NCBI GenBank assembly: GCA_964597105.1
Contig: CAZQXX010000002.1
Span: 1 to 40,339 of the forward strand
Direction of reading: 5' to 3'
From: an uncultured Anaerolineales bacterium
GTDB taxonomy: Bacteria; Chloroflexota; Anaerolineae; B4-G1
DNA length: 40,339 bases
Both the position numbers and the translations under genes were made by a program. Below are positions 1,153 through 40,213 of the stretch, in pieces (the stretch's first letter is position 1; every line of letters begins with the position of its first letter). A model generated the notes under the pieces. The model saw only the letters and a program-made list of their open reading frames with translations, made no database searches and was not told the DNA's origin.

Positions 1153-1226
1153 TTGCTCATTCCTCCTTGCTTCTATCTCTCATCTTCAGCTACGTCGCCG
1201 GCGGCGTTCGATTCCCTGGGGGGCAC

Positions 1227-1868
1227 CTAGCCCGGCGCTCTCTGGAGCAGGTCTCGCACCTGTTCGTTCGTCGTCTGGGAGAAATCCCGGAACGCACCCC
1301 CGACGCCAAAGAAGGGACGAGGCGTCGTGAGACAGAGCACCCGGTCAACCATGTCCTCAAACTCAGCGCAGACGTCGGGCGGGGCCGTGGGGACGGCCAC
1401 AACGATTTTCTGCGGGTTGTGCTCGCGCAACGCGGAGACAGCGGCGCGCATGGTGGCTCCCGTGGCCAGACCGTCATCCACCAGGATAACAGTCTTCCCA
1501 CCGAGATCGATGCTGGGACGAGCCCCACGGTAGATCTGTTCACGATCCTCCAATATCTCCCGTTCCTCCTGCGCCACTCGCTCGATGGTCGCTTCAGAGA
1601 TGCCGAGCCTCTCGACCACGCCCGTGTTCATCACCTGAACGCCCCCGGACGCGATGGCGCCCATCGCGAGCTCCGGATTACCCGGCACCCCCAGCTTCCG
1701 GACGACGAATACGTCGAGGGGCGCGTCCAACGCCTGGGCCACCTCGAAAGCGACAGGGACTCCGCCCCTGGGGAGTCCCAGGACGACGACGTCCTCTTGA
1801 TCCGCGTATTCCGACAGTTCCTCAGCCAGCTGCTGGCCGGCTTGTCCTCTGTCCGCAAACTCTGCCAT
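1227..1868 (-). CDS. Phosphoribosyltransferase-family protein (COG1926-like predicted PRTase), copy 1
   Basis: PRPP-binding loop VILVDDGLATGATMRAAV. The N-terminus MAEFADRGQAGQQLAEEL is co-linear with the neighbouring paralog. I chose ATG 1868 because AGGAG lies about 5 nt upstream. The longer track ORF (to 1946) adds a basic MAKRKRRRRV extension that the paralog lacks. Confidence 0.85.
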   Translation of the reverse strand: MAEFADRGQAGQQLAEELSEYADQEDVVVLGLPRGGVPVAFEVAQALDAPLDVFVVRKLGVPGNPELAMGAIASGGVQVMNTGVVERLGISEATIERVAQEEREILEDREQIYRGARPSIDLGGKTVILVDDGLATGATMRAAVSALREHNPQKIVVAVPTAPPDVCAEFEDMVDRVLCLTTPRPFFGVGGAFRDFSQTTNEQVRDLLQRAPG

Positions 1869-1915
1869 ATGGTCTCCTGATTCTTCAAGGGAAGGCGGGT
1901 GCGGGTACGCGTAGC

Positions 1916-2572
1916 TTACCCTTCTCCGCCGCTTTCGCTTCGCCATCTCTCCATAAGACTGGTAACCTCGCTGTCGGGCACGTCATACCAGCGCTCGTAC
2001 ACCTGGGCGACGGCGCGGAAGAACTTCGGTTGCTCCAGCACCAGAATCTCATCGGCCATCCCATCCCGCTCGCCCCCGATCCGCTCCGCGACCTCGCGAC
2101 CCGCGACCGGGACAGCGACAACGATCTTCCGCGCGCTCCCGTGCCGACAGCACTTAATGGCAGCCTGCATCGTCGATCCCATGGCGATCCCGTCGTCGAC
2201 GAGAATAACGGTTCGGCCGTCCACATCGGGAAGGGGCTCTCCTCGCCGGAGGACCGCGAGCCGCCGCTGGATCTCCTGCCGTTGTTCGTCGATAACCCGC
2301 TCAATAGCTTCGTCGGAGAGCCAGCGGGTGGCATCCCTGAGAATCACGGTGCTGCCGTCCTCGGCGACGGCGCCAAACCCAGCCTCTGGCTGATCCGGAT
2401 AAGGCAGCTTGCGGACAATGAGGAGGGACAGATCGGCGTCCAGGTCCTTCGCGACCTGATACCCCACCTCCACGCCACCCCGGGGTATCGCCAGAACCAG
2501 CACGTCCTCGCCGCGGTAGGGCTCTAGTTCCTGCGCTAACTGCTTGCCAGCGTCTCGCCTATCCTTGAACAT
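1916..2572 (-). CDS. Phosphoribosyltransferase-family protein (COG1926-like), copy 2, a tandem paralog
   Basis: MFKDRRDAGKQLAQELEPYRGEDVLVLAIPRGGVEVG... and the PRPP loop VILVDDGIAMGSTMQAAI. Co-linear with copy 1. Confidence 0.85.
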   Translation of the reverse strand: MFKDRRDAGKQLAQELEPYRGEDVLVLAIPRGGVEVGYQVAKDLDADLSLLIVRKLPYPDQPEAGFGAVAEDGSTVILRDATRWLSDEAIERVIDEQRQEIQRRLAVLRRGEPLPDVDGRTVILVDDGIAMGSTMQAAIKCCRHGSARKIVVAVPVAGREVAERIGGERDGMADEILVLEQPKFFRAVAQVYERWYDVPDSEVTSLMERWRSESGGEG

Positions 2573-2643
2573 CTTGCCTTTCTATTGGTCCCTCTCGCTC
2601 TGCTCCACTCACAGACTCCACGGATCGGAGTGCCGTCCCGTGT

Positions 2644-3096
2644 CTAGATCAGAAGATCGAGCGCCTCTGTCGTCCGATCCCACGTCTCATCATCGGGATT
2701 GGCGACATCCGGATCTACAACGGTCATCAACTGAGCGGTCACCAGAATCAGCGCTCCGATAATGTCTGGCAGCAGGTCGATCACTTCCTGACTCGGCTCA
2801 CGTTCCAGCAGGGGGTAGGTCGCGAGTTGCTCCAATACCGGATCAATATCCAGCTCTTCCTCGTACAACTCGAAGTCTTGCATACTCTCGCGCAGCCCCC
2901 GGGTCAACGGCAGATCCGGCTCCATTATGAGGTCCCGGTTGTCGTAGCTGGCGTGCTGCACCCCCACTAGTAGAAGGTCATAGAGTTTGTCGCTCACAAG
3001 ATCCGAGAGTCGTTGCAGATCACTCTTGTCCAAGTCGAGGCCGGACACGAGCCCGACCAACTCCTCCAGTCGATTCGCCCCAAATATCATTGACAT
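2644..3096 (-). CDS. DUF1931-like protein, a single-chain double histone fold (pseudodimer)
   Basis: 150 aa and acidic. ...LDLDKSDLQRLSDLVSDKLYDLLLVGVQHASYDNRDLIMEPDLPLTRGLRES... and ...PVLEQLATYP...DLLPDIIGALILVTAQLM..VDP match my memory of DUF1931 (Aq_328-like) proteins. AGGAGG lies 8 nt upstream of ATG 3096. The CDS call is solid; the family call is moderate. Confidence 0.65.
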   Translation of the reverse strand: MSMIFGANRLEELVGLVSGLDLDKSDLQRLSDLVSDKLYDLLLVGVQHASYDNRDLIMEPDLPLTRGLRESMQDFELYEEELDIDPVLEQLATYPLLEREPSQEVIDLLPDIIGALILVTAQLMTVVDPDVANPDDETWDRTTEALDLLI

Positions 3097-3179
3097 CGTT
3101 GAATCCTCCTATCTCTTCCCGAAATCACTTGAATCGTCTGGACATTCGTGTTGAGATCCTGGCGCCCCGTCAGATCCTC

Positions 3180-3206
3180 AAAAACTTGACGGCTTCACTG
3201 TCGTCA
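3180..3206 (-). terminator. Weak intrinsic-terminator candidate after the MBL gene
   Basis: On the minus strand, UGACG (3206-3202) pairs with CGUCA (3191-3187) across a 10-nt loop. AG and UUUUU (3184-3180) follow. It lies 20 nt after the MBL stop. The stem is only 5 bp. Confidence 0.3.
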
Positions 3207-3225
3207 CAGCTCGCCGCCGGGACAC

Positions 3226-3969
3226 TCAACGCAACACGACCTCCATGCCGTCGTAAGCGATATCTACTTCGGATAGGTCTCGTTCGTCCGCCAGGCTCCG
3301 CATTTCAGCCCGAAGGGTTCGTTTGTCGCCCTCTACAATCTCGGACCCCAGATGGGTGAAAATGGCCCGAGGGACGTCGAGCTTGTGACACCAGGTGAGC
3401 TGAGTTTGGATGGGCACGTGGCCGATGATGACGTCACCTGGCTTCCGCACCATCGAGCGCGTCACCGTCGCTCCGTCACCCACGTAGACCCGCACCCCAG
3501 ACAGCGCGGCCTGGCGATCCTCAATCCACGCGACATCGGGCACATAGAAGATGTCGACCTCTCCAGCGCTGACGCGATACCCCACAGCAGGCGCCCGGGT
3601 GGAGTGGAGGACGGGGAACGCCTCAAAACGGATCCCGGGCGACTGTCCCCCTCCGCCAATTGTTATGAGCTGTCGCTCCGGCATCGTCCGCCGCTGCTCG
3701 ATGTCGAAAGCGTCCATCGTCTCCCACGCCGCTTCTGTAGCGTAGACAGGGCATGGCGCACCCTCCTTCAGGCCAAAGGCGTGATCCGGATGCGCGTGTG
3801 TCACAACGACAGCGTCGACCTCCCAGTCTCCAACCTCATCCAGCCAATCCTCGCCGCAGTCGATGATGACCTGGGCCTCGTAGTAGGAGACCTTCATCGA
3901 GCTGTGCATACGGTGCCGTACGGTCCGCGCCTCGATGTTCCCCCGTGTACCCAGGAACGTGAGTTTCAT
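3226..3969 (-). CDS. MBL-fold metallo-hydrolase
   Basis: HxHxDH motif in VVVTHAHPDHAFGL. 247 aa with a typical beta-lactamase-fold layout (MKLTFLGTRG...). Confidence 0.85.
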   Translation of the reverse strand: MKLTFLGTRGNIEARTVRHRMHSSMKVSYYEAQVIIDCGEDWLDEVGDWEVDAVVVTHAHPDHAFGLKEGAPCPVYATEAAWETMDAFDIEQRRTMPERQLITIGGGGQSPGIRFEAFPVLHSTRAPAVGYRVSAGEVDIFYVPDVAWIEDRQAALSGVRVYVGDGATVTRSMVRKPGDVIIGHVPIQTQLTWCHKLDVPRAIFTHLGSEIVEGDKRTLRAEMRSLADERDLSEVDIAYDGMEVVLR

Positions 3970-4080
3970 CGTACCATCTCTAGTGTAACAGAAAACGTCT
4001 CGCGCTGCGTACGGAATGGGTTGGGGTTCCTTTTGGGTTTGGTTGTGAAAAGTTGGAATTTCGTGGGAGGAGATGCGGGC

Positions 4081-5373
4081 CTAATCTGGTCCATCGGACT
4101 GAACGATGACGGTCGGCGCCTCTCCCTCGGTAGCATCTTCGAGGATCGCTCGGACGGCACCCTCTTCCAGACCGCCGCGGCCTTTTATCACTTTCTCAGC
4201 GCGATTCGAGGGATAAGAGCCGCCCGCGGACGCCGCAGAAGACTGATCCCGCAGCTGTGCTGCCGCCACGTCGGAGAGGGCTGCGTACGGAATCCAGCCT
4301 TTTCGAGCGGCGTGGCGGGCCATCGAAAGACTGTCGTCGGCCAATACCAGCTCTCTCCCTGCAGCTGCCACCTCCTGAGCCAGCGCACGAATGGCACGCG
4401 CACGTTCCGGATCAGGACTCACAGTGCGGATGTACACAGCCAGGATGCGGTCGGGATGCTGGTCCACGAGGGTGCAGTAGATCTCGGGATCCGCTTCGCT
4501 ACTGTCTCCGAGGAGGATAAAAGGGAGATCGGCGTAGGTATCGAGGATGGGCCGGATGAGCCCCAGCTTGTGTTCTCGCTGGCGGGTCGGGAGTATCTCG
4601 TCCCGATACACACCCCAGTTGCGCAGGAGAAGCACCGGGCCGCCGGGGATGTTGTTCATCCTGAAAAAGTCCTCGAGAAGATCGTACAGGTTCCAGAGGC
4701 CGTTCGACACGTAGAACATGGGCGCTTTGGCATCCCCGTGAGGGCCTCGATGGAGAGCACGGTAAAAGGCAGCCACCCCTGGCAGAGGAAGACGCGTTCG
4801 GGCATTGCCGAACAGGACGGTGCCGAGCATCTGAAGGAAGTCCCCCACGTCCGACTGGATGACCGTGTCGTCGATGTCACTGATGACCCCGAAGGGCGCA
4901 TCCGGCGGCGGGATGAGGACGGGGGCCGTCGCCCGAACAGGACCGGGCTGCCCCTCACTGACCGGCTCGACAAGCTCCAGCTCGACAGACTGCCACCGCT
5001 TATCGGAGGAAACAGGCTGGGAAGGCTCAAGTACGCACTCGAACATCCCCTCCTCATCGGCAGTCATAGTCTGCTCCACATCCTGGAAGCGTGCTATGAG
5101 GTGGGCATGGGGGACCTCCCGGCTCTGGAGGCGCTTCACCATGTTGATCAGGTTCGTCCACCAGCTATCGGTCTCACTCGGCGGAGCGACTCCACGGTCT
5201 TCGAGCACGCGGCCCATGAGATAGAAGCGCTCAGGCGTCCCGTAGCCGTGATAAGGCTGGATCCTGATCGGGCCCGGCCCTCCCAACGCGTAATAGAGGC
5301 GGTACTTCAAGGCATCGTACCGCCTCTCGATAGCCCTGACATAGGGAGCGATCTTCCGCTGCCAGTCTGTCAT
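4081..5373 (-). CDS. App1-family (DUF2183) phosphatase, a putative phosphatidate phosphatase
   Basis: 430 aa. DxDxT motif in GVISDIDDTVIQSDV. N-terminal IRIQPYHGYGTPERFYLMGRVLEDRG is typical of bacterial DUF2183 proteins. There is no SD upstream; a -10-like TAGTAT sits 10 nt before the ATG. Confidence 0.8.
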   Translation of the reverse strand: MTDWQRKIAPYVRAIERRYDALKYRLYYALGGPGPIRIQPYHGYGTPERFYLMGRVLEDRGVAPPSETDSWWTNLINMVKRLQSREVPHAHLIARFQDVEQTMTADEEGMFECVLEPSQPVSSDKRWQSVELELVEPVSEGQPGPVRATAPVLIPPPDAPFGVISDIDDTVIQSDVGDFLQMLGTVLFGNARTRLPLPGVAAFYRALHRGPHGDAKAPMFYVSNGLWNLYDLLEDFFRMNNIPGGPVLLLRNWGVYRDEILPTRQREHKLGLIRPILDTYADLPFILLGDSSEADPEIYCTLVDQHPDRILAVYIRTVSPDPERARAIRALAQEVAAAGRELVLADDSLSMARHAARKGWIPYAALSDVAAAQLRDQSSAASAGGSYPSNRAEKVIKGRGGLEEGAVRAILEDATEGEAPTVIVQSDGPD

Positions 5374-5494
5374 GAGTCTACGTATACTATGACGTCCGTG
5401 CCAGGACTGGATCCCTCACGCTCCCTATCAGGAGTCGCCGGTGGAAACCCGCGGGCGACCTTCGGGGAGAGAACAGGTGAAAGGACACAACAAT

Positions 5495-5530
5495 GCCCTG
5501 GAGGGCGCCCTGGAGCGTGCCCTCCAGGGC
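5495..5530 (-). terminator. Hairpin / intrinsic-terminator candidate after the small membrane protein gene
   Basis: A perfect 12-bp stem joins gccctggagggc (5495-5506) and gccctccagggc (5519-5530) across a 12-nt loop. It starts 11 nt after the TAG at 5542-5544. On the minus strand it is followed by AUUGUUGUGUCCUUU. Confidence 0.5.
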
Positions 5531-5541
5531 GCTCCGAACGG

Positions 5542-5736
5542 CTACTCCTCTTCGTCGGACGAGCTCGTGACGAACCCAAGGACGAGGCCAAGGGCAGTCC
5601 CCAGGGCGGGCCTATTCAGGATCAGCTTGCCCGCAACGTAGCCGAGCAGAGCCCCCACTATGATGCTCAAGCCGAGGCCACGGCTGGTTGACGTCCTCTC
5701 CTCTTCTGTCGTCGTCTCTTCACGTTCCATCTCCAT
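5542..5736 (-). CDS. Small hypothetical membrane protein (64 aa)
   Basis: MEMEREETTTEEERTSTSRGLGLSIIVGALLGYVAGKLILNRPALGTALGLVLGFVTSSSDEEE has an acidic head and tail and two Gly-rich hydrophobic helices. AGGAGG (5741-5746) lies 4 nt upstream of ATG 5736. The track ORF extends to 5802. Confidence 0.5.
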   Translation of the reverse strand: MEMEREETTTEEERTSTSRGLGLSIIVGALLGYVAGKLILNRPALGTALGLVLGFVTSSSDEEE

Positions 5737-5859
5737 ATCTCCTCCTGGTTGTTCAACACTCTGGTTGGACATTAGGTGCAGGCATCGCCGATGCACCGGC
5801 AAGGATAGCGTCTCCCGACCTGACGAGCTGCCGGGTGTCGAAACAGTCGCACGCCTTCG

Positions 5860-9082
<3,223 letters not shown>

Positions 9083-28153: not shown

Positions 28154-28360
28154 CTAGTCCTCTCCAACCATGAACGAGATCTTCGTATTGACCCGGTACG
28201 CCGTGATCTCATCGTCCTCGACGATGGCCTGTACATCTTTCAGATAGATCGACTGAATGTTACGAACGGTCTTGGACGCCTCGTCGAGTGCCTTCTGGAC
28301 CGCGTCCTCCCAGCTCTTATCCGACTGTGCGAGTACCTCAATGACCTTCACAACGCTCAT
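28154..28360 (-). CDS. Dodecin-family flavin-binding protein
   Basis: 68 aa: MSVVKVIEVLAQSDKSWEDAVQKALDEASKTVRNIQSIYLKDVQAIVEDDEITAYRVNTKISFMV. This matches the bacterial dodecin pattern (KviE..a.S.kSwEDAv...v..AskT.rni....v.....v.dg.i..Yrvn.kisF). AGGAGGG is upstream. Confidence 0.85.
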   Translation of the reverse strand: MSVVKVIEVLAQSDKSWEDAVQKALDEASKTVRNIQSIYLKDVQAIVEDDEITAYRVNTKISFMVGED

Positions 28361-30908: not shown

Positions 30909-31595
30909 CTACTCTTCTGGCGGCGGCTCCGCCCGTTGCAGCGGCGGCGTTTCCGCCTGACCGGCGTAGACCGTGTCGACGGCGTGACCGATCCGCCGCT
31001 CGCCGTCATACAGGTAGGCGTGAACGACGTACTCGCCCTCCTGTTCAGGCGTGATTTCGATTGTGTAGCTCCCTTCATCTCCTTCAGACACCTGCAGATT
31101 TTCCAGCGTAGCGAGCTGGTCGAACTCCCCCCTCGGCTGCTGAGCCCAGAACTCGAGCCGCAGGTCGCCCCCCGGCTTCAGGCCGCGGACGATGGCCTCG
31201 CATCGCAGTTGCTCACCCGGCGACGGGTACGGCGCCGTCAGGGCGAAGAGGCTCACGAGCTCCGCAGCTGCCTCGCCAACCGTGATGCGGATCCCGGGAG
31301 ATTCCCACTCAAAGCGCTCGTCGTCCCTCCATCCTTCGACCGAGGCGTACACGCGTCCGGTCAGATCCGCGGATACCCGATAGGGGATCTCTTTTTCCTC
31401 GCCAGGCGGCAGTGCCTCGACGTAGTTCCCGTCGCCAGCAATGGCGATGCTATAGTCGTCCATCGAGCGGAGGCGAACGTCGAGGCCTGTCAGCGGTTCG
31501 TCCCCTACGTTCTTCAGCCTCAGCGTAAGCCAGTGCAGCCCCCGGTCAATTGTGTCGGGAGATACCTCAAACTCGATCGGATATCTTGTTGGCAT
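30909..31595 (-). CDS. Unassigned two-domain paralog family, copy P1 (228 aa), the dispersed copy
   Basis: It aligns without gaps to P3 (38280-38924); I counted 117 identical of 211 positions by hand. Shared motifs are YPIEFEVSP, HWLTL, LTGLDV, FEWESP, AELVSLFAL, GEQLRCEA, LEFWA and AYLYDGERRIG. AGGAGG lies 7 nt upstream of ATG 31595. There is no signal peptide. Confidence 0.8.
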   Translation of the reverse strand: MPTRYPIEFEVSPDTIDRGLHWLTLRLKNVGDEPLTGLDVRLRSMDDYSIAIAGDGNYVEALPPGEEKEIPYRVSADLTGRVYASVEGWRDDERFEWESPGIRITVGEAAAELVSLFALTAPYPSPGEQLRCEAIVRGLKPGGDLRLEFWAQQPRGEFDQLATLENLQVSEGDEGSYTIEITPEQEGEYVVHAYLYDGERRIGHAVDTVYAGQAETPPLQRAEPPPEE

Positions 31596-31686
31596 TCGCC
31601 ATCCTCCTCTCCCATCAACGTGGTGCGTGAACGGCTACATCCAAACGCGACTGTAGCGCCATGTCGTCGACCCGCTTCTGATTGTC

Positions 31687-32628
31687 CTAAGAAGCGAGCA
31701 TGACCTCCTTTGCGCGCTGCGTTATCTCGAGCCCCTCGTCGAAGGGGCGCTGCCACATATTGCGGCCGAAGATCAATCCTGTGGCTCCGCTCTCGATGCA
31801 GATGCGTGCCTTCGTCAACAGATCCTCGTCGCTCACCTTGCTCCCTCCGGAGAACAGAACCATGGTCTTTCCCGCCGAGTCAACCACCTTCCGTACCGCC
31901 CGCCGATATGCCTCGTTCTCCTCCATGTCTTTCCATTCCTCATAGAGCTGTCGGTAAGGCTGCGGGCTCTTCTCGTTTCCTGGATCCCTGAAAGCGGGCA
32001 CGTTGAGCTTAACCACATCCGCACCCAGCTCGTTGGCCAACCGGGCGGCGTAGTCGACGGCGTAGATGCTGTCATGACCACCCTTTCGCTCCACCGCCTC
32101 CCCTCGTGGATAGCTCCAGAGGATAAGGGGCATCCCGTACTGCTCACACCTCGCTCGGACCCGCATCAGCTGGACGAAGTCCTCGCTCTGCCGCGGCGAC
32201 CCCACATACAGGGTATATCCGACGCCGTCGGCTCCCAGCCGTACCGCATCCTCAACTGTCGCGTCCAGGGCCGAAAGTGGGCAGTCACCCGAGGGAATGT
32301 GCGGCCTACCATTGATCTTGAGGATCAACGGCACATCGCCGGCGTAATCCTGCATATACTTCTGGGCCAGTCCGATGTGGAACACAACCCCGGAGTAGCC
32401 GCCCTCTTTCGCCAGGCGACACTGATAATCAGGGTCGCCGCTGGGCGGATTGGGGAAGAAGTCGATGGGCCCGTGTTCCACGCCATGGTCAACTGGCAAG
32501 AGCAGTAGTTTCCCGTTCCCCGGCCCGTGCTCGTAGAGCATACGGTGCAACCGCACACGCTTGCCCAGACCGATGGCCAAAGATTCGAGTCCGTCTTTGC
32601 TGCTTGGCGATGTGGACATGTTATCCAT
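31687..32628 (-). CDS. Class I fructose-bisphosphate aldolase family protein (DhnA/FbaB, archaeal type)
   Basis: 313 aa. LLLLPVDHGVEHGP...GYSGVVFHIGLA...PLILKINGR...ADGVGYTLYVGS...GADVVKLNVP...VLFSGGSK. AAGGAGGG is upstream. Confidence 0.8.
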   Translation of the reverse strand: MDNMSTSPSSKDGLESLAIGLGKRVRLHRMLYEHGPGNGKLLLLPVDHGVEHGPIDFFPNPPSGDPDYQCRLAKEGGYSGVVFHIGLAQKYMQDYAGDVPLILKINGRPHIPSGDCPLSALDATVEDAVRLGADGVGYTLYVGSPRQSEDFVQLMRVRARCEQYGMPLILWSYPRGEAVERKGGHDSIYAVDYAARLANELGADVVKLNVPAFRDPGNEKSPQPYRQLYEEWKDMEENEAYRRAVRKVVDSAGKTMVLFSGGSKVSDEDLLTKARICIESGATGLIFGRNMWQRPFDEGLEITQRAKEVMLAS

Positions 32629-32698
32629 GCTGCCCTCCTTACGTGCACTTAGGCACGCCTTCGCTAACCGGTGAATCGTGAGCCTTGCCCAGGTCTCG

Positions 32699-33592
32699 CT
32701 ATCGGATCAGAAGAACGGGAACTCGCGTCTCGTCCAGGAAGTCAAGCAGCGCCTCGTCCTCAAGCGTCTCCGCCTCCGCAGGCAATATCAGCGTACCCCC
32801 CTCCTCGTGCGCCACAAGATAGGCGAGCCGCGAGACACTCGTCTCGCTCAACGTCTGGAAGGTGGGCTCCAGAAGCGTGCCCACAAGCTGGTCCCGGACA
32901 GCCTCCTGCTGCTGGGATGCTTCCGCAGGATCGTCCGCGAGCAGGAAGATCACTAACCCGCCATCCCCTGGCTTCGCGAGATCTGCAGCGACAGCAATCG
33001 CCTTGTCTGCACGCGATGTGCCGTCGTAGACCACGCGAAAGGGTGGTTCTATCTGAGTTCCCTCGCGGAGAACCAGCGTGGACGCCGGGGCCTGGCTCAA
33101 CACCTCTCGAACCACAGGAGCCAGGCGCTCCGTGTGGAACGCCGACCAGGCTCCTTTGCCCATGATGACGACGTCGGCCTCGGCGGCAGCCGTCAACAGC
33201 TCGGGCGCGACCCTGCCACGAACCACGCGGAACGTACAGCGAGTGCCCAGATTTCGGGTGCGCCCAGTGAACCGCCGCCGGACTCGGCCAGCCTGTACCC
33301 TGAGCTGGCGTGAGAGCTCCTGCGTCTCCACCTGACGGCAGCTGGCGGTGAAGAAACCAACCTCCTGAACGAAGGGCAGCTCGGTCAAGCGCCGCACATT
33401 GACGTCCTCGACGAAAAGGCCCAGGAGCTCGGCATCGAGCCGAGCAGCCATCCGAGCCCCGGCCTCCAACGCCGCCCGGCTGTGTTGCGAAGGATCGAGC
33501 GCAACCAGAATTCGGCGTATCCCATGCTCCCGCCCCGGTTCCTCCATGTCGTTACCATCCATGCTCCGGTCGGTCAGGTCTTCATCGCTCAT
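32699..33592 (-). CDS. Universal stress protein family (one clear USP domain plus a degenerate second), translationally coupled to the Lon-like protease
   Basis: RILVALDPSQHSRAALEAGARMAARLDAELLGLFVED...ADVVIMGKGAW. ATG 33592 overlaps the upstream TGA (33589-33591), giving ATGA. Confidence 0.8.
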   Translation of the reverse strand: MSDEDLTDRSMDGNDMEEPGREHGIRRILVALDPSQHSRAALEAGARMAARLDAELLGLFVEDVNVRRLTELPFVQEVGFFTASCRQVETQELSRQLRVQAGRVRRRFTGRTRNLGTRCTFRVVRGRVAPELLTAAAEADVVIMGKGAWSAFHTERLAPVVREVLSQAPASTLVLREGTQIEPPFRVVYDGTSRADKAIAVAADLAKPGDGGLVIFLLADDPAEASQQQEAVRDQLVGTLLEPTFQTLSETSVSRLAYLVAHEEGGTLILPAEAETLEDEALLDFLDETRVPVLLIR

Positions 33593-36054
33593 GAGTCCTC
33601 CTCCTCCTGAGCGCTCTTGCCGAACTCAGACCGCTTCTGGGCCAGCTCGGCCAACCGCTGCGCCACCTTGTAGTTGATGGTCCCTTCCGGATGCTCCCCC
33701 TCTGGACCGGGCTCGCCAGCCGGCACGCCGGTGAGGAGCTCGATCCCTTCGTCTATCGTCTCAACGGGGTAGATGTGGAAGTTCCCCTCCTCAACCGCGT
33801 CGACGACGTCGTGACGCAGCATCAGGTTCTTGACATTGCTCTGGGGAATAATGACACCCTGGTCGCCGGTCAGACCGCGCTCCTTGCAGATATCGAAGAA
33901 GCCTTCGATCTTCTGATTGACACCACCGATGGCCTGAACCTGCCCGCGCTGGTTAACCGATCCGGTGACGGCCATCGACTGCTTGATCGGGACCTCAGCC
34001 AGCGACGATAGCAGGGCGTAGAGCTCGGCCGACGAGGCGCTGTCGCCGTCGACCTGACCATAGGACTGCTCGAAGACGAGGCTCGCGGAGAGGGACAGGG
34101 GCGTCTCCTCCGCGTAGCGCGAACCGAGGAATCCGGCGAGGATCAGCACTCCCTTGGAGTGAATCGGCCCACCGAGCTCAACCTCTCGCTCGATGTCGAC
34201 GACCTCGCCCTTCCCCACACGGGTTCGAGCCGTAATCCGCGTCGGACGACCGAACATGAAGCCGCCGAGAGGGATGATCGACAGACCGTTGATCTGTCCG
34301 ATCTCGTCGCCCTCGGTGTCGATGAGGACCGTATCCCGGAGGATGGCCTCCTGCATCCGCTCGCGCAACCGGCCGGCTCGATAGACCTGGGCATCAATCG
34401 CTCGCTGAACGTCATCCGCAGTAACGACGCCATTCCCATTCTCCCTGGCCCAATGGTTGGCCTCGCGGAGAAGATCCTCCACTATCTCTCCCTTGGTCGA
34501 CAGTTTCTCCGAGTCGCTCACCATCCGAGCACTATGCTCGATCACCCGAGCCACAGCACCCCGATCGAAGGGCTGGAGTTCCGCTTCGTGGATCATGGTA
34601 CCGATGAACCTGGCGTACAGCTGCTGGTTCTCATCGTCGCGCTCCATCTGTTCGTGGAAATCCGCTTGAACTTTGAACAGATCGGCGAATTCAGGATCGT
34701 ACTGGGTCAAGAGGTAGTAGATCAGACGGTTACCGAAAAGACCGATCTTGATGTCCAACGGTATCGGCTCCGGTTCAAGGGAGACGGTGCTGATCAGGCT
34801 CAGCTGCTGAGCCAGCGACTCGAGCCTGAGCTTACCGGAGTCCAGGGCGCGTTTGAGCGCCTCGTACGCGTATGGTTCCGTCAGCACCTTCCGTGCGTCA
34901 AGCAGCAGATACCCACCGTTGGCCCTGTGCAGGGCGCCGGACTTGATCAGATGGAAGTCAGTCGTCAGCGCACCCATGCGCGCCATATGCTCGATCCGTC
35001 CGATCAGATTCTGATACGTGGGGTTGTCCTCGTAGATCACGGGGGCATGGTCGGTCTCGCTGTTGTCGACGATCACGTTCACTTTGTACCGGCGCATCAG
35101 CGCTTGCTGGACCAAGGCCTGACGGCCCCCCTGCCCCTGCTCTCCCTGCATCATCTGCTGCAACGCTTGCTGGACACCCTGCTGCTGACCACCACTCTGC
35201 TGGGGCAGGAAATTCTCTGCGTTCTCGACGACGTCATCCTGGACAGCATCGAGGTGGTCTACGATCTTCGGATAATTCGAGTACTTCTCACGCAGTTCGT
35301 CGATCAGGCCCCCGATGGCCAGGTTCGCGATCTCTTTATTGAGTTCGTTCAATCGGTCCCGCATCTCCCGCTGCCAGCTGGGCACCTGGCGGAGGATCTC
35401 CTGGAGTTCTCCCTGCATCTCCTCAACCTTCCGCTGCAGCTTTTCCTGCTCCTCTCCAGACAGCTCTTGGATCTCGTCGGGAGAGAGCACCTCCCCGTCG
35501 CGCACCGGGGCCACAGCTAGGCCGGCGGGCGTGCGAATGAGCCGCACATCCTCCTGTCGCGCGCGCTGCTGCAGCTCCTCAAATGCCTCCTGCTGTTTCT
35601 CCCGGAACTCCTCCACGACGGACTGACGCCGGGACTGGTATTCCTCGCTCTCGAAGGCTGCTGACAAAGCGGCGTCGAATTGCTCCACGAGCTCGTCCAT
35701 GTCGTCACCGAACTCGACGCCCGTACCGGCAGGCAACTGAATAGCCTTGGGCTTATTGTCGTCCTCGAAGTTCTTCACGTAGCACCAGTCGGATGGCGCA
35801 GGTTCATTCTCTGCCCGCTCCTCAAAGAACCGACGCATAAGGGACTGCTTACCGATCCCCGGGGGGCCCATGGCGTAGATGTTGAATCCCCTATCATCGA
35901 TCCCCATGCCAAATCGCATGGCCTCCACCGCCCGAGGCTGGCCGATGACCTCCCTCAGGTCTTCTACCTCATCCGTGGTTTCAAACCGGAACTGCTCCGG
36001 GTCGACGTACCGATACAGCTTCGTCGAGTCTAGGCGTTTCGATTGGTCAGTCAT
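33589..36054 (-). CDS. LonC-type Lon-like protease: an AAA-like module split by a long coiled-coil insertion, plus an S16 Ser-Lys protease domain
   Basis: P-loop GPPGIGKQ. A Q/E-rich helical insertion of about 330 aa follows. The Walker-B position reads GGYLLLDARKVL. The protease domain reads QVDGDSASSAELYALLSSL...MAVTGSVNQRGQVQAIGGVNQKIEGFF. I chose ATG 36054 because AAGGAG lies 8 nt upstream. The track ORF extends to 36141. Confidence 0.88.
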   Translation of the reverse strand: MTDQSKRLDSTKLYRYVDPEQFRFETTDEVEDLREVIGQPRAVEAMRFGMGIDDRGFNIYAMGPPGIGKQSLMRRFFEERAENEPAPSDWCYVKNFEDDNKPKAIQLPAGTGVEFGDDMDELVEQFDAALSAAFESEEYQSRRQSVVEEFREKQQEAFEELQQRARQEDVRLIRTPAGLAVAPVRDGEVLSPDEIQELSGEEQEKLQRKVEEMQGELQEILRQVPSWQREMRDRLNELNKEIANLAIGGLIDELREKYSNYPKIVDHLDAVQDDVVENAENFLPQQSGGQQQGVQQALQQMMQGEQGQGGRQALVQQALMRRYKVNVIVDNSETDHAPVIYEDNPTYQNLIGRIEHMARMGALTTDFHLIKSGALHRANGGYLLLDARKVLTEPYAYEALKRALDSGKLRLESLAQQLSLISTVSLEPEPIPLDIKIGLFGNRLIYYLLTQYDPEFADLFKVQADFHEQMERDDENQQLYARFIGTMIHEAELQPFDRGAVARVIEHSARMVSDSEKLSTKGEIVEDLLREANHWARENGNGVVTADDVQRAIDAQVYRAGRLRERMQEAILRDTVLIDTEGDEIGQINGLSIIPLGGFMFGRPTRITARTRVGKGEVVDIEREVELGGPIHSKGVLILAGFLGSRYAEETPLSLSASLVFEQSYGQVDGDSASSAELYALLSSLAEVPIKQSMAVTGSVNQRGQVQAIGGVNQKIEGFFDICKERGLTGDQGVIIPQSNVKNLMLRHDVVDAVEEGNFHIYPVETIDEGIELLTGVPAGEPGPEGEHPEGTINYKVAQRLAELAQKRSEFGKSAQEEEDS

Positions 36055-36090
36055 TGGGTTATCTCCTTGAATTGGCTGCAAAAGCTGCGA

Positions 36091-36120
36091 TATTGATTCT
36101 CGTGTCTCGGTCCAGCGCAA
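36091..36120 (-). promoter_or_regulatory. Promoter-like motif TTGCGCTG-N16-TCAATA upstream of the Lon-like gene
   Basis: The minus strand reads TTGCGCTGGACCGAGACACGAGAATCAATA and ends 36 nt upstream of ATG 36054. The 8-mer, the spacing and the TCAAT box are the same as at 20963-20992. Confidence 0.3.
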
Positions 36121-36176
36121 TCTCGTTGTCCCCCGGCCCAACTGAGGGATGACTGGCTAGGATGCCTGTGCCTGAG

Positions 36177-37067
36177 TTACTGCACCTCCACGATCGTATC
36201 GGCCTGCATCTCCAGCATCTTGATGAGCGCGGAAGCGTTCTCCTCGCCCCAGCCCTGGTTGACCGCCCCCTTCAACATCTCGCGCACGATGGCGGCCTCA
36301 GGAATCGGAGACCGGAGCTGCTCCGCGAAGCGGGCGATGAGATTCGCATCTTTCAGCATATGTCGCAGCGCGAAGAACGTCGAAAAATCTCGGTCGATCA
36401 AGCTGCGTCCCACACCGCTGATCAAGGGCGATCGGAAGTCGACCACGTCGAGGACGTCCATCACGTCATGGGGGTCGAGGCCCGCATTCTTGGCCAGGAT
36501 GAGAGCCTCGCCGACAGCCTCAAGCTGGGCGGCCACGATCAGGTTCCCCACCAGCTTCATGGAGGTCCCCATGCCGGTATCGCCCATATAGTGGACGCTG
36601 ACACTGAGAGGCTCCAGAACAGGCTTGACGTGGCTGAACACCCCCTCGTTCCCACCGACGACGATCCACAACCTCCCCTCCCGGGCCTCCTGCTTACTCC
36701 CGAAGACAGGCGCGTCCAGGAACTCGACTCCTCGCTCCTGGTACGCCTCCGCCTCATAGCGGCTGGTATCGGGATGGACCGTGCTCATGTCCAGCGCGAT
36801 CTGCCCGCTATGCACGCCGGCGAGGATACCCTCGTCTGAGAATAGCACACTCTCGACAGCGTCATCGTCGCTCAGGCTGTATATGATCACGTCGACGTCC
36901 GCGACAGCTTCAGCGGGAGTCGACGCCTCCGTCGCTCCCATCTCAATCAGGGGCTCCCGTTTCTCCGCGGTTCGATTCCAGACGGTGACCGGGTAGCCGG
37001 CCGCCACCAGGTTCTTGGCCATCCCGCTCCCCATCACGCCCAATCCGAGGTACGCTATCTTCTCCAT
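36177..37067 (-). CDS. NAD(P)-dependent beta-hydroxyacid dehydrogenase (3-hydroxyisobutyrate / 6-phosphogluconate dehydrogenase-like)
   Basis: Rossmann motif [31 protein letters not shown]. 296 aa. GGAGGG is upstream. Confidence 0.9.
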
Positions 37068-37100
37068 TACATCACCCTCCAGAAGTACTGGCTCATGCCG

Positions 37101-37361
37101 TCAATCTCTCGTGCCGTTTCCGCAGCCGCAAGCCAACCCAGCCCGGGATCTTAGTCCCTGGACTGTGGCCTCGACAATTGAGGCCACGTTCGTTTGGTCC
37201 CGTTGATCCTGAACGCGCCTCGCGGCCCGCCGTATCGCCTTCAACGTCACCGAGCCCTCCGGCAGTGCAAGCACCTGGTCCCCGCCAACCGGAACGATGG
37301 CACGGCTTCGATCACGGGCAACCACGACCACACTTGGCCCCTCTCCCGTCTGCGCCATCAT
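37101..37361 (-). CDS. Doubtful small hypothetical ORF (about 86 aa)
   Basis: MMAQTGEGPSVVVVARDRSRAIVPVGGDQVLALPEGSVTLKAIRRAARRV... GAGGAGG lies 2 nt before the first ATG and 5 nt before the second. Third-position GC looks coding. No family is recognised, and the ORF could be spurious in GC-rich DNA. Confidence 0.3.
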   Translation of the reverse strand: MMAQTGEGPSVVVVARDRSRAIVPVGGDQVLALPEGSVTLKAIRRAARRVQDQRDQTNVASIVEATVQGLRSRAGLACGCGNGTRD

Positions 37362-37533
37362 CGCCTCCTCGCTCTCGCGCTCCCGGATGTACTGACCGCT
37401 GGCGACGCGACTGGCCCAAAAGGCTGGGTCACCGACGCACCCCCGCGGGCTTGCCATACTCGCTCGCGACCGCAGACGCACTGCTCGACGGCCGGCGCCC
37501 CCAATCGGCGGGTGTCAATGCCGTGAAACCCAT

Positions 37534-38178
37534 CTACGTTGTGACACTTATGTAGTCGGTCTCGTGACCAATGCGTGTTGTGTCGTCGAATAGATAGGCG
37601 TGGATCACGTAGATCCCCTCTTCCTCCGGTACGAACTCGTCAGACTTATACGTCGCCGTCTCGCCTGGATTGAGCAGGTCGGTCGCGGTCTTGTCTACTG
37701 ATATCGAGTCGCCACTGGGCGTCTCAACCCAGAACTCAAGGATCAGCCCGCTCGACGTCGTGAGGCCGCGGAGCGTGGCCTCAATCGTGACTGGCTCACC
37801 CCGCCTGGGGTGGGGTTCGGGCAAAGCGAAGACACTCACCAACTCTGCAACCTCGGCACCCACCACGATCCGCCGGGGAGGGGATTCCCAGTGGAATGGC
37901 TCGCCAGCCCATCGCCCGTCGAGGGAGATGTAGACACCTCCGGACTGATTCGCCGCCACCTGGTAGTGAACCTCCTCCCCCTCGTCCGGCTCCATCGATG
38001 AGACGAACTTCGACTCCTCGACCACTTCGATCGCGTACGTGTCGAGGCTGTTCAGTCTCACGTTCAATCCGGTCAACGGATCCTGGCTGATATTCCTTAC
38101 GCTGACGGCCAGCCAGGATCTGCCGGCCGATGTGCTCTTGGGGCTTATCTCATACTGTATAGGAAACTTCCCTGCCAT
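37534..38178 (-). CDS. Unassigned two-domain paralog family, copy P2 (214 aa)
   Basis: MAGKFPIQYEISP...SWLAVSVRNISQDPLTGLNV...FHWESP...AELVSVFAL...LEFWV...HAYLFDDTTRIG. GGAGGAGG lies just upstream of ATG 38178. The track ORF extends to 38199. Confidence 0.8.
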   Translation of the reverse strand: MAGKFPIQYEISPKSTSAGRSWLAVSVRNISQDPLTGLNVRLNSLDTYAIEVVEESKFVSSMEPDEGEEVHYQVAANQSGGVYISLDGRWAGEPFHWESPPRRIVVGAEVAELVSVFALPEPHPRRGEPVTIEATLRGLTTSSGLILEFWVETPSGDSISVDKTATDLLNPGETATYKSDEFVPEEEGIYVIHAYLFDDTTRIGHETDYISVTT

Positions 38179-38230
38179 AGGCCTCCTCCAGCCTGTCATT
38201 AACTCGATTGCAGATGGATGGACGATGTAA

Positions 38231-38270
38231 AGATCGCCAGAGCCAGGGCGCGGTCTGGAACTGGCGATCT
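38231..38270 (-). terminator. Hairpin / terminator candidate between P3 and P2
   Basis: A 10-bp perfect outer stem joins agatcgccag (38231-38240) and ctggcgatct (38261-38270). A 4-bp inner stem joins ccag (38243-38246) and ctgg (38255-38258) across a 2x2 internal loop. It starts 9 nt after the P3 stop and is followed by UUUAC. Confidence 0.55.
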
Positions 38271-38279
38271 ATCCGGTTC

Positions 38280-38924
38280 CTAGGCCTCCCGCACGTAGAC
38301 GTACTCGACCTCACGCCCTATGCGGCGAATGCCGTCGTAGAGATAGGCGTATATGGTGTAGAGACCGTCCTCCCCGGGCATGATCTCCGCGGAGTAGGTC
38401 GCCTCCTCTCCCGGCGACAGGGCCTTCGTCTCCACGATGGCCAGCTCCTCGAACTCGCCGCCCGGCGTGTCCGCCCAGAACTCCAGCTTCAGTCCCTCGG
38501 TCTCGCTCAAGCCGCGGATCGTGGCCTCGCAACGCATTTGCTCTCCAATGACGGAATATGGCTCCGTCATAGCGAAGAGGCTGACGAGCTCTGCCACCTC
38601 CGCCCCCACCGTGATCGGGATGCCGGGGGACTCCCAATGGAAGCGCTCGCCGTCCTGCCACCCATCGATGGTGACGTAGAGGCTTCCAGTCCTGTTGGCC
38701 GAGACCTGGAATGGTAGCTCGCGTCTCTCGTCGGGCTTGAGAATGGAGACATAGCTTCCCGTGCCCAGGACACTGATGCTATACGCGTCCAACGAGTTCA
38801 GGTTGACGTCCAGGCCAGTCAGATCCTGAGTGCCAATGTTCTGCAGGCTGAGAGTCAGCCAATGCCTGCCCGTGTCGATGCTCTTTGGAGTTATCTCGTA
38901 TTCAATAGGGTACTTGATAGCCAT
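38280..38924 (-). CDS. Unassigned two-domain paralog family, copy P3 (214 aa)
   Basis: MAIKYPIEYEITPKSIDTGRHWLTLSLQNIGTQDLTGLDV...FHWESPGIPITVGAEVAELVSLFAM...GEQMRCEATIRGL...LEFWA...YAYLYDGIRRIG. AAAGGAGGAAGT precedes ATG 38924. Confidence 0.85.
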   Translation of the reverse strand: MAIKYPIEYEITPKSIDTGRHWLTLSLQNIGTQDLTGLDVNLNSLDAYSISVLGTGSYVSILKPDERRELPFQVSANRTGSLYVTIDGWQDGERFHWESPGIPITVGAEVAELVSLFAMTEPYSVIGEQMRCEATIRGLSETEGLKLEFWADTPGGEFEELAIVETKALSPGEEATYSAEIMPGEDGLYTIYAYLYDGIRRIGREVEYVYVREA

Positions 38925-39017
38925 ACTTCCTCCTTTTCTCTGTGACCGTCACGCATACGTTGACTTCTGCTGCACTGACGTTCATTCCGCGCCCGGCGTA
39001 TTCTCCGATCAACTATT

Positions 39018-39053
39018 GCCCGTCCTGCAGCCGTTACTGAGGCTCTGGAGGGC
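39018..39053 (-). terminator. Imperfect hairpin after P4
   Basis: GCCCUCCAGAGCC...GGCUGCAGGACGGGC forms bulged pairs of 4+3+1+4 bp. It begins 5 nt after the P4 stop. Confidence 0.3.
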
Positions 39054-39058
39054 AAGCT

Positions 39059-39706
39059 TTACTTTTCGTCGACTTGGACGATTTCGATTCGGCGACCGAT
39101 CCTCGTCGTGCCGTCGTACAGAAACGCGTAGATCGTGTATCGTCCTGGCTCCTCCGCCTCGGTCTCCGCGACGTACCGTGCCTGCTCCCCGGGAGACAGC
39201 CGCTTCGTCTCCACAGAGGCCAGTTCCTGGAACGTACCGCTGGGCGTCTCCGCCCAGAACTCGAGGGTGAGCCCCGCGCTTTCAACGCGTCCTCTGAGCG
39301 TGGCCTCGCAGCGGATTACCTCGCCCACTGACGGCTCGGTCTCAGTCAGCGCCAGCAGGCTCACCAACTCCGCGCTCTGCTGCTCCACCGTGAGCGTGAT
39401 GTCCGGGGATTCCCAGTGAAACGGCTCGTCCCCGCGGTCTCCATCCACCGTGATGTAGACGCTCCCCGATAGTCTGGCAGAGATTTGCACAGGGATCACT
39501 TCCCTCGCGTCTGGATCCAGAACCGGGATGAAGGCATCCTCGGTGAGTACATCGACACCGTGGACATCCAGCGACTTCAGCCTCACGTGGAGGCCCCTCA
39601 ACGTGTCCGTGGACACGTCTTCGAGGGTTATCGTCAGCCAGTTGGTCCCCCTGTCGACAGCCTGGGGACTTAGCTCATACCGGAATGGTCCTCTTGTCGC
39701 CATCAT
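39059..39706 (-). CDS. Unassigned two-domain paralog family, copy P4 (215 aa), the most divergent copy
   Basis: MMATRGPFRYELSP...NWLTITLEDVSTDTLRGLHV...FHWESPDITLTV...AELVSLLAL...VIRCEATLRG...LEFWA...YAFLYDGTTRIG. The SD is weak (GAGG, 9 nt upstream). Confidence 0.8.
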   Translation of the reverse strand: MMATRGPFRYELSPQAVDRGTNWLTITLEDVSTDTLRGLHVRLKSLDVHGVDVLTEDAFIPVLDPDAREVIPVQISARLSGSVYITVDGDRGDEPFHWESPDITLTVEQQSAELVSLLALTETEPSVGEVIRCEATLRGRVESAGLTLEFWAETPSGTFQELASVETKRLSPGEQARYVAETEAEEPGRYTIYAFLYDGTTRIGRRIEIVQVDEK

Positions 39707-39769
39707 TGGACTGCCTCGTGGGTGCCGGGAGGAATGGGATCAAATCCCATCAGGCCCTTCACCCCAGCT

Positions 39770-39799
39770 CCGAGGGTGGTACCGCAGGGCCACCCTCGG
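39770..39799 (-). terminator. Hairpin / terminator candidate after the DUF2267 gene
   Basis: A 10-bp perfect stem joins ccgagggtgg (39770-39779) and ccaccctcgg (39790-39799) across a 10-nt loop. It starts 12 nt after the stop. A second hairpin, atgggat-caa-atcccat, lies at 39734-39750. Confidence 0.5.
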
Positions 39800-39811
39800 G
39801 TCCGTCGGGGC

Positions 39812-40213
39812 TCAGACATCTATGCTCATCTTACCTTCGCTCCCGGCCTCAAACAGAGGCTTGTAGTTGTCCGGGAGCTGCGTGCGCACGTCCTCCATCT
39901 CTCCCGTCGTGACCGCCTCGTGAAGGACATCGATCACGGCCCGGGCGTGAAACGTGGCATCCGGCAGATCCACAGTCTCCTTGGCGGCCACTCGAAGGAA
40001 GAATTCATCGACAGCGAAGCTCTCTGTCATATCGACATCTCGCAGGAACTTCCCCAGCTCTGGAGGAAGCTGAGCGGCCAGATCCCCCGCCTCCCCGGGA
40101 TGAATCCGCTCTGCCAGGGTCTCAAGCGTGGCCTGCAACGCTCTCACCGCGTCACCGCGAGATGGCAGCTGCGCTCTGTCCTGAACTTCTCCAACTATCT
40201 CCTCATACTGCAC
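39812..40213 (-). CDS. DUF2267 domain protein
   Basis: 133 aa. EEIVGEVQDRAQLPSRGDAVRALQATLETLAERIHPGEAGDLAAQLPPELGKFL...EFFLRVA...HARAVIDVLHEAVTTGEMEDVRTQLP is the typical two-repeat DUF2267 pattern. AAGGAGG lies 7 nt upstream of GTG 40213. Confidence 0.85.
   Translation of the reverse strand: MQYEEIVGEVQDRAQLPSRGDAVRALQATLETLAERIHPGEAGDLAAQLPPELGKFLRDVDMTESFAVDEFFLRVAAKETVDLPDATFHARAVIDVLHEAVTTGEMEDVRTQLPDNYKPLFEAGSEGKMSIDV

Follow-up and report, generated by a model that had tools for sequence, protein, structure and literature searches.

A 40,339-nucleotide (nt) stretch of contig CAZQXX010000002.1 from an uncultured Anaerolineales bacterium (hereafter, the window) carries at 30909–40213 ten genes in head-to-tail order, all of them minus-strand, and the question raised by this locus is whether such a combination of genes constitutes one functional module. 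In the direction of transcription, the block studied here runs from a DUF2267 gene through P4, P3, P2, a small open reading frame (ORF), a beta-hydroxyacid dehydrogenase, a LonC-like protease, a universal stress protein (USP) and a class I aldolase to P1. An original prediction made from this DNA had read the same gene order and had described P1–P4 as copies of one family that bracket the cassette; both observations were confirmed, and the four P proteins are true paralogs, with 41–55% identity to P1 and 56 invariant columns in their alignment. It had also proposed that the block as a whole might be a module of stress proteostasis and metabolism, and this part required revision.

From a comparison of gene content, phylogenies and gene neighbourhoods, we consider that the 9.3-kb block probably arose when two stress units, each conserved on its own, were placed side by side in one lineage together with optional passengers, and that it forms part of a larger co-directional island of genes for stress and maintenance functions. 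The first unit would be a LonC-USP bicistron, in which a protease of the ATP-independent type is coupled to a dedicated tandem USP with a degenerate ATP motif. The second would be a P array headed by DUF2267, the partners of which in other lineages are DUF2267, M50-CBS (site-2-protease-like) proteases and PRC/BON proteins, and not LonC. In the ancestor of a genus-level clade, the P array would have been placed, once, directly upstream of an accessory clade A copy of LonC-USP. Later, the small ORF, a DUF308 gene and the dehydrogenase would have been taken up at the junction between P2 and LonC, and the aldolase, P1 and a gene for a mechanosensitive-channel-repeat protein at the junction between USP and a SixA-like phosphatase gene. 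The informative comparisons for this question were those between independent lineages, together with a domain fusion, synteny among close kin being uninformative.

LonC and USP as a unit inherited together

Gene content was compared in an order-wide sample of 145 genomes, made up of the families f1 (47 genomes plus that of the window, G000, a 3.28-Mb assembly), f2 (26) and f3 (71); L-, G- and C-numbers label the loci, genomes and contigs of the comparison set, and genes were assigned to families by Pfam and NCBIfam searches, which agreed with the originally predicted names of the DUF2267, dehydrogenase, protease, USP and aldolase genes. A LonC-like gene was present in 124 of the 145 genomes. 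Forty LonC loci were fetched from elsewhere in the order, 24 of them from clades A and B of the LonC tree and 16 from its remaining clades. Clades A and B formed one group with a support of 100, and the copy of the window fell in clade A. The USP gene lay directly downstream of lonC in 23/24 of the clade A/B loci, which came from two families and encoded LonCs 55–70% identical to that of the window; in the remaining clades a downstream USP was found in 0/16, and lonC lay behind dnaN. The distant LonC clades of f2 and f3 (L089–L101 and L106–L108; 40–50% identity) stood directly downstream of this beta clamp gene without a USP.

Neither P nor the aldolase, the dehydrogenase or DUF2267 occurred within 6 kb of LonC in the 24 clade A/B loci sampled elsewhere. 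The genome of the window itself carried a second LonC-USP pair on contig C57 (about 4024–7371, minus strand; L079), whose LonC was 59% identical and belonged to clade B, which is family-wide; none of the other genes of the block was nearby. Because the pairing of LonC with USP extends across clades A and B and is mostly found without P, we regard it as an old, self-contained unit, and two families of the order have inherited LonC and USP jointly. The single LonC-USP-aldolase-dehydrogenase module of the original prediction did not hold, since LonC-USP elsewhere lacked its supposed companions and, even where P precedes LonC-USP, the aldolase was found in 10 and the dehydrogenase in 5 of 15 loci. 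The proposed four-enzyme module of stress and metabolism is not worth following as one pathway, and two testable units take its place.

The LonC-like protease and its tandem USP

The most probable start codon of the protease gene (33589–36141 as called, minus strand) is an ATG at 36054, which lies behind an AAGGAGA ribosome-binding site kept in relatives. The refined gene (33589–36054) encodes 821 amino acids (aa) with matches to AAA_32, LonB_AAA-LID, LonC_helical and Lon_C. Alignment with MtaLonC/TTC1975 (4fwd_A) by phmmer gave an E-value of 2.4e-96 and placed the Ser-Lys dyad positions opposite each other, in the regions ...DGDSASSAEL... and ...GGVNQKIEGFF...; the C-terminal S16 domain was also recognized through Pfam Lon_C. 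The Walker A-like motif GPPGIGKQS has no Ser/Thr after the P-loop Lys, and the Walker B-like motif GGYLLLDA has no catalytic Glu before the Asp. The corresponding motifs of MtaLonC are GPPSLGKHE and GYLILDA, the latter likewise without the catalytic Glu (PMC3391209). LonC_helical (PF20437) was matched at residues 118–151 and AAA_32 resumed at residue 365, with about 200 unmatched residues between them. Judged by its dyad, its degenerate Walker motifs and its large helical insertion, the protein is a member of the LonC subfamily. MtaLonC degrades proteins independently of ATP and also acts as a chaperone (PMC13069640), and the motifs of the protease of the window suggest that it would have no ATPase activity and would be ATP-independent. 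The set of LonC_helical, AAA_32, LID and Lon_C is common to this protein and MtaLonC (PDB 4fwd, 7euy and 8k8v). A point of difference is that in the window, and in two LonC clades of the order, lonC is coupled in translation to a tandem USP gene of its own, a partner of LonC that was not mentioned in the literature searched.

The USP gene (32699–33592, minus strand) encodes a tandem-type protein that was assigned to PF00582 with 55.9 bits against a cut-off of 24. The ATGA overlap between the lonC stop and the usp start, predicted originally, was read directly at 33589–33592, and the 4-nt overlap was kept in L115 and L121–L123, down to 66% LonC identity. The nearest solved structure was that of TTHA0350 (PDB 3ab7/3ab8; E = 1.9e-5), a tandem USP of Thermus thermophilus. 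The two-USP-domain layout is the same in both proteins, but the G-x2-G-x9-G-S/T motif is degenerate in the USP of the window (GKGAWSAFHTERLAPV), which reads GKGAWS.AFHTERLAPV opposite GRSGEAHGDGFGGLGST of TTHA0350 and has AP where TTHA0350 has GS. The protein lacks an intact nucleotide motif of the ATP-binding (MJ0577-type) subclass, although it is a USP by Pfam all the same, and because of this degenerate motif ATP binding appears doubtful. The USP would be a subunit or regulator of the LonC protease. As a recurrent arrangement, the LonC-USP pair may account for the regulation of a Lon protease that has no ATPase activity.

Joining of P and LonC-USP in one clade

P genes followed directly by LonC-USP were seen in 15 loci, namely the window and 14 others (L007, L009–L014, L019, L020, L115 and L121–L124). 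Ten of these P-adjacent cases (the window, L007, L009–L014, L019 and L020) were placed by the LonC tree, and all were located in one 11-row subclade with a support of 100, nested among f3 sequences. The same subclade also includes G309, in which P and LonC are apart. Because all of the placed adjacencies lie in one LonC subclade, the adjacency counts as one evolutionary event. P-LonC adjacency did not recur in independent lineages outside close kin but was confined to a single LonC subclade, inside which the aldolase and dehydrogenase are variable. The suggestion that the block is one functional neighbourhood stands insofar as the arrangement is conserved in 15 loci of a genus-level clade, but what is conserved there consists of two units joined once.

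The stable core of the syntenic loci was P3, often followed by P2, and then LonC-USP. Around this core, DUF2267 headed the P array in 9 of the 15 loci, the aldolase followed USP in 10, P1 was present in 6, the dehydrogenase in 5, and P4 in 4; a DUF308 gene occupied the P2-LonC junction in 4/15. The dehydrogenase, aldolase, P1 and P4 were therefore individually dispensable, and two junctions, P2-LonC and USP-SixA, act as hot spots of insertion. At the P2-LonC junction, a gene for a DUF308/HdeD-like membrane protein was present in L007 (11822–12380), L121 and L123, and a fragment of it in L122.

P1 (30909–31595, minus strand), the paralog on the far side of LonC-USP, also occurred in L005 and L006 in addition to the six syntenic loci, among which were L121–L124. 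It directly followed USP, with no aldolase between, in L005, L006 and L121, and elsewhere it followed the aldolase. P1 and the divergent paralog P4 (39059–39706, minus strand), both assigned by the paralog alignment, are confined to the genus-level clade. In the P tree, the P1 clade (support 100) comprised four rows, those of the window, L005, L006 and L010. The only P4 orthologs seen were those of L012, L019 and L123, and the window copy formed a pair with that of L012 with a support of 100.

The dehydrogenase gene (36177–37067, minus strand) encodes a protein with NAD_binding_2 and NAD_binding_11 domains (PF03446 and PF14833). No ortholog was found in 12 congeneric species genomes, and only paralogs of 36–39% identity occurred elsewhere in those genomes. 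The idea that the gene was unique to this genome was ruled out by four metagenome contigs (L121–L124) that carry it at the same site with 79–90% identity, and the gene thus belongs to a sub-lineage and not to G000 alone. At the Pfam level it is a member of the HIBADH and tartronate-semialdehyde-reductase family, but it fell below every equivalog cut-off of NCBIfam (TIGR01505, 224 against 340.75; TIGR01692, 183 against 291.6). The aldolase (31687–32628, minus strand) is of the DhnA/DeoC type (PF01791, E = 1e-41) and shares Pfam-level membership with the family of the Escherichia coli class I aldolase FbaB (DhnA), but it was also below every equivalog cut-off; the best NCBIfam model, NF006704, gave 209.8 bits against 277, and assignment to the superfamily PF01791 alone is secure. 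No other PF01791 gene occurs in G000, where a class II FBA gene is found on contig C146.

The small ORF between P2 and the dehydrogenase (37101–37481 as called, minus strand) is a genuine protein-coding gene, shorter than called, with a refined extent of 37101–37361 and about 86 aa. Its basic product (isoelectric point, pI, 10.5) has a core V.V.D...GSVT.E..RRAAR.V that is kept in L007, L012, L019, L121, L123 and L124, and it is a called gene of 74–82 aa in three metagenome contigs. Neither Pfam nor NCBIfam gave a match to it. In L122, Tn7-like genes (TnsA-like, Mu-type transposase, TniB and TniQ) occupy positions 1–5399, directly upstream of a sigma70-SIMPL-DUF2267-P block.

The P family and its neighbours in other lineages

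The 3.28-Mb assembly has no P genes other than the four of the block. P3 (38280–38924, minus strand), for which 458 homologs were found, is the best-conserved paralog; P2 (37534–38199, minus strand), also assigned by the paralog alignment, probably starts at 38178. The AlphaFold model of P3 (predicted local distance difference test, pLDDT, 92.5) showed two tandem Ig/FnIII-like beta-sandwich domains. The P proteins are acidic (pI 4.4–4.6; P3, 4.4) and have no signal peptide. The top Foldseek matches of P3 were the C-terminal barrels of transglutaminases and RbmA (E about 1e-9), which are generic matches, and a 34-sequence profile of P searched against the PDB gave only chance-level matches (E > 1), with no sequence-level match to a solved structure. 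Both P domains thus resemble CARDB, DUF7490 and NPCBM_assoc Ig-like domains, transglutaminase barrels and RbmA at the level of the fold, the Pfam matches being weak; these relatives differ from P in being mostly extracellular or parts of larger enzymes, whereas P is stand-alone and signal-peptide-free. The C-terminal domain also had some likeness to BsuPI, an intracellular protease inhibitor, but at E = 0.05–0.1 and 13–14 bits, against a Pfam cut-off of 22.9, this was retained as no more than a weak lead.

In the P tree, the sequences of Chloroflexota were split from those of Archaea with a support of 96, and this clean split speaks against a recent inter-domain transfer of P. The P3 clade comprised 14 rows. 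The P2 clade included second or third array copies of f3 genomes, and the duplication that gave P3 and P2 consequently predates the split between f1 and f3.

Within the order, P was found in 31 of the 145 genomes (f1, 14/47 plus G000; f2, 0/26; f3, 16/71). In a class-wide sample it was found in 2 of 301 genomes, and it was also present in many archaea. Most P loci had no LonC; there was none at about 40 archaeal P loci, and within the order P and LonC shared a contig only in the genus of the window (g1). The neighbourhood analysis suggested with the original prediction therefore gave a divided answer: P-LonC-USP is kept in close kin, but P is mostly found without LonC and LonC-USP mostly without P.

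Other neighbours of P recurred. The DUF2267 gene of the window (39812–40213, minus strand; PF10025, E = 1e-35), which heads the P unit, is one of only two DUF2267 genes in G000. At least five lineages have DUF2267 near P: it lies upstream in the genus-level relatives, L023, L038 and L119/L120, and 7 kb downstream in L117. An M50-CBS protease gene was directly upstream of P in L016, L020, L022, L023 and L119/L120; PRC/BON proteins were encoded beside P in L008, L020, L022, L038, L115, L117 and L119; HtrA was directly downstream of P in L024 and L033; and in a bathyarchaeal contig an Hsp20 gene lay 24 nt upstream of P. The P loci of Thermoplasmatales carried PEBP and single USP genes, with PRTase, PolX and NAD-dependent LigA genes nearby. 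In a congener, L126 (G343:C46, 375–1823, plus strand), P domain 1 was fused to DUF2171/PRC and two BON domains in a protein of 482 aa. OsmY-like BON-domain and PRC-barrel stress proteins are thus encoded beside P in at least seven loci and were fused to its first domain once, although the P genes of the window have neither a BON nor a PRC neighbour. In G343:C46, the fusion gene is directly followed by a gene for a RelA/SpoT-type (p)ppGpp enzyme (1895–3304). The M50-CBS protease gene of G000 lies beside a double PRC-barrel gene on contig C41 (L133, 7–1895), without P, and its paralog is on contig C9 (11445–15075), 2 kb from a tandem USP gene. In Thermoplasmatales contigs L025, L032, L034 and L036, genes for PolX, bacterial-type LigA, PRTase, P, PEBP, USPs and a DJ-1/PfpI-like protein occur within about 15 kb, a gene content that echoes the bacterial window.

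The proposal of a stress module gains from these neighbours, since elsewhere P stands beside USPs, Hsp20, HtrA, M50-CBS, PRC/BON, PEBP and DUF2267, but no defined pathway emerged; the stress neighbourhood is supported as a loose island, the genes of which may be co-regulated under stress. DosR/DevR-type dormancy clusters, such as Rv2623–Rv2631 of Mycobacterium tuberculosis, contain USPs and the M50-CBS protease Rv2625c. The island resembles them in its tandem USPs, M50-CBS protease, PRTase-type and small stress proteins and in having no common metabolic pathway, but P, LonC and PolX-LigA are not hallmarks of the DosR regulon. Neither the window nor the adjoining 3.5 kb upstream showed a DosR-type regulator gene, and no DosR box model was searched.

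A plainer explanation is synteny by descent, in which unrelated neighbours are retained in a young clade and the stress theme reflects annotation bias, USPs and similar genes being common. It would account for the restriction of the P-LonC adjacency to one clade, for the shared direction of the whole window, and for the heterogeneous bathyarchaeal contexts of P, in which the genes of the window are not recurrent. We give it some weight, but a minor one, because genes that are single- or low-copy (DUF2267, PolX, LigA, M50-CBS and PRC/BON) recur near P in differing orders across families and domains, because the P-PRC-BON fusion exists, and because two of the nine USP genes of G000 lie in the 40-kb window against about 0.1 expected.

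The adjacency of P to M50-CBS, LonC, HtrA or Hsp20 in different lineages, together with the fusion to PRC and BON, would fit P proteins that work with regulated proteases and with BON/PRC proteins. We therefore offer, tentatively and as the less probable course, the idea that P is an undescribed cytoplasmic stress-protein family of two Ig-like domains, spread over Chloroflexota and several archaeal phyla, whose members might act as substrate-presenting adaptors, inhibitors or protected clients in physical contact with proteases, and which in this genus would have been recruited to an ATP-independent LonC-USP. The partners of DUF2267-P, namely M50-CBS, PRC/BON and Hsp20, suggest a part in stress proteostasis among uncultured bacteria and archaea of sediments.

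Spacers and transcription signals of the block

The spacers of the block were 33–149 nt long between genes that share one strand throughout. Co-direction is weak evidence here, since every assigned gene of the 40-kb window is on the minus strand. The spacer after DUF2267 folded with a minimum free energy of -56.3 kcal/mol (z = -3.54), and 0 of 200 shuffles was as stable; just past the DUF2267 stop codon it has a G+C-rich, 10-bp stem-loop (39770–39799, minus strand) that is terminator- or stabiliser-like. After the P3 stop codon there was another 10-bp stem-loop (38231–38270, minus strand; z = -2.46), with UUUAC next to it. Hairpins of -21 to -40 kcal/mol followed P3 in 12/12 relatives examined, including those in which P3 abuts lonC. 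A consensus fold of the P3-P2 spacer gave no shared structure, the hairpins being non-alignable and not homologous. No sigma-70-like promoter came out of a consensus scan, in which terminator-like sites did not exceed the level of shuffles. The 8–10-mers shared among the 21 intergenic spacers of the window were Shine-Dalgarno-like words alone, no better than in shuffles, and there was no operator-like motif. A candidate motif upstream of lonC, TTGCGCTG-N16-TCAAT, was absent in 18/18 relatives checked. The hairpins after DUF2267 and P3 suggest separate or attenuated transcription units, and separate units are plausible for the block.

Several observations weigh against two units that merely adjoin. 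Clade A LonC was present in about 22 of the 31 P-positive genomes and in about 12 of the 114 P-negative genomes, a rough count that shared ancestry inflates. P lies directly beside three types of protease (LonC, HtrA and M50-CBS) in independent lineages, and a protease-related role for P, hence a real P-LonC link, is possible. In L010 and L011, P2 ends 38–92 nt before lonC, a distance too short for a promoter, and P-LonC-USP may be one operon there. Where spacers are rich in G+C, the hairpins could act as stabilisers rather than terminators.

The same short spacers and the adjoining proteases also favour the view that the block in its entirety forms a single regulated module of stress or dormancy, with the P proteins as clients, adaptors or protectants of LonC-USP and the aldolase and dehydrogenase carrying out a linked metabolic step; so do the sub-threshold BsuPI matches of the P C-terminal domain and the recurrence of the full arrangement, including dehydrogenase, aldolase and P1, in L122–L124 and partly in L121. 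We nevertheless judge this view unlikely. L121–L124 are close kin with LonCs 80–89% identical, for which synteny is expected by descent, and each accessory gene is missing from some congeners. In 23 of the 24 other loci LonC-USP stands without P, P stands without LonC in archaea and in most other Chloroflexota, and the adjacency has a single origin. The 21 spacers have no operator-like motif in common, and the BsuPI matches are far under the Pfam cut-off. A role of P as a client or adaptor of LonC in particular is not supported, the adjacency being one event in one LonC subclade, and it remains a minority possibility.

Transfer of the block between genomes as part of a mobile island, which would explain the patchy occurrence of P and clade A LonC, is very improbable: it has in its favour the tnsA/tnsB/tniB/tniQ genes that directly flank the block in L122, the nesting of the f1 clade A LonC among f3 sequences and the distribution of P, patchy in bacteria and broad in archaea, but neither the window nor any syntenic locus other than L122 showed a transposase, an integrase or a repeat boundary, G+C is flat at 0.59–0.64 throughout the block, and the P tree separates Chloroflexota cleanly from Archaea. 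A juxtaposition of two separately conserved units within a co-directional island agrees better with these observations.

Other genes of the window

The rest of the window encodes two PRTases, LigA, a rhomboid protease, PolX, Prs, a 2905-aa ORF, a second tandem USP, ZIP, HtrA, an HhH protein, MgtC/DUF4010, two PEBPs, a dodecin, the SixA-like phosphatase and the mechanosensitive-channel-repeat protein. Some genes of this island recur in differing orders beside P in L020, L024, L029, L030, L033, L038 and L115, and, again in differing orders, beside clade A LonC-USP in f3 (L072, L073, L075 and L078).

The dodecin gene (28154–28360, minus strand; 68 aa) was unannotated; the region that holds it, between the SixA-like and first PEBP genes, had appeared as a 613-nt spacer. 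Relatives have the gene at the same place with 71–87% identity, and three metagenome contigs carry it as a called PF07311 gene. Upstream of DUF2267, the contig of the window (L125, G000:C2 40000–43812) carries a SIMPL-family gene, two small genes without a family match and a Pyr_redox_2/Reductase_C-type gene, a gene order shared with L121 and L124.

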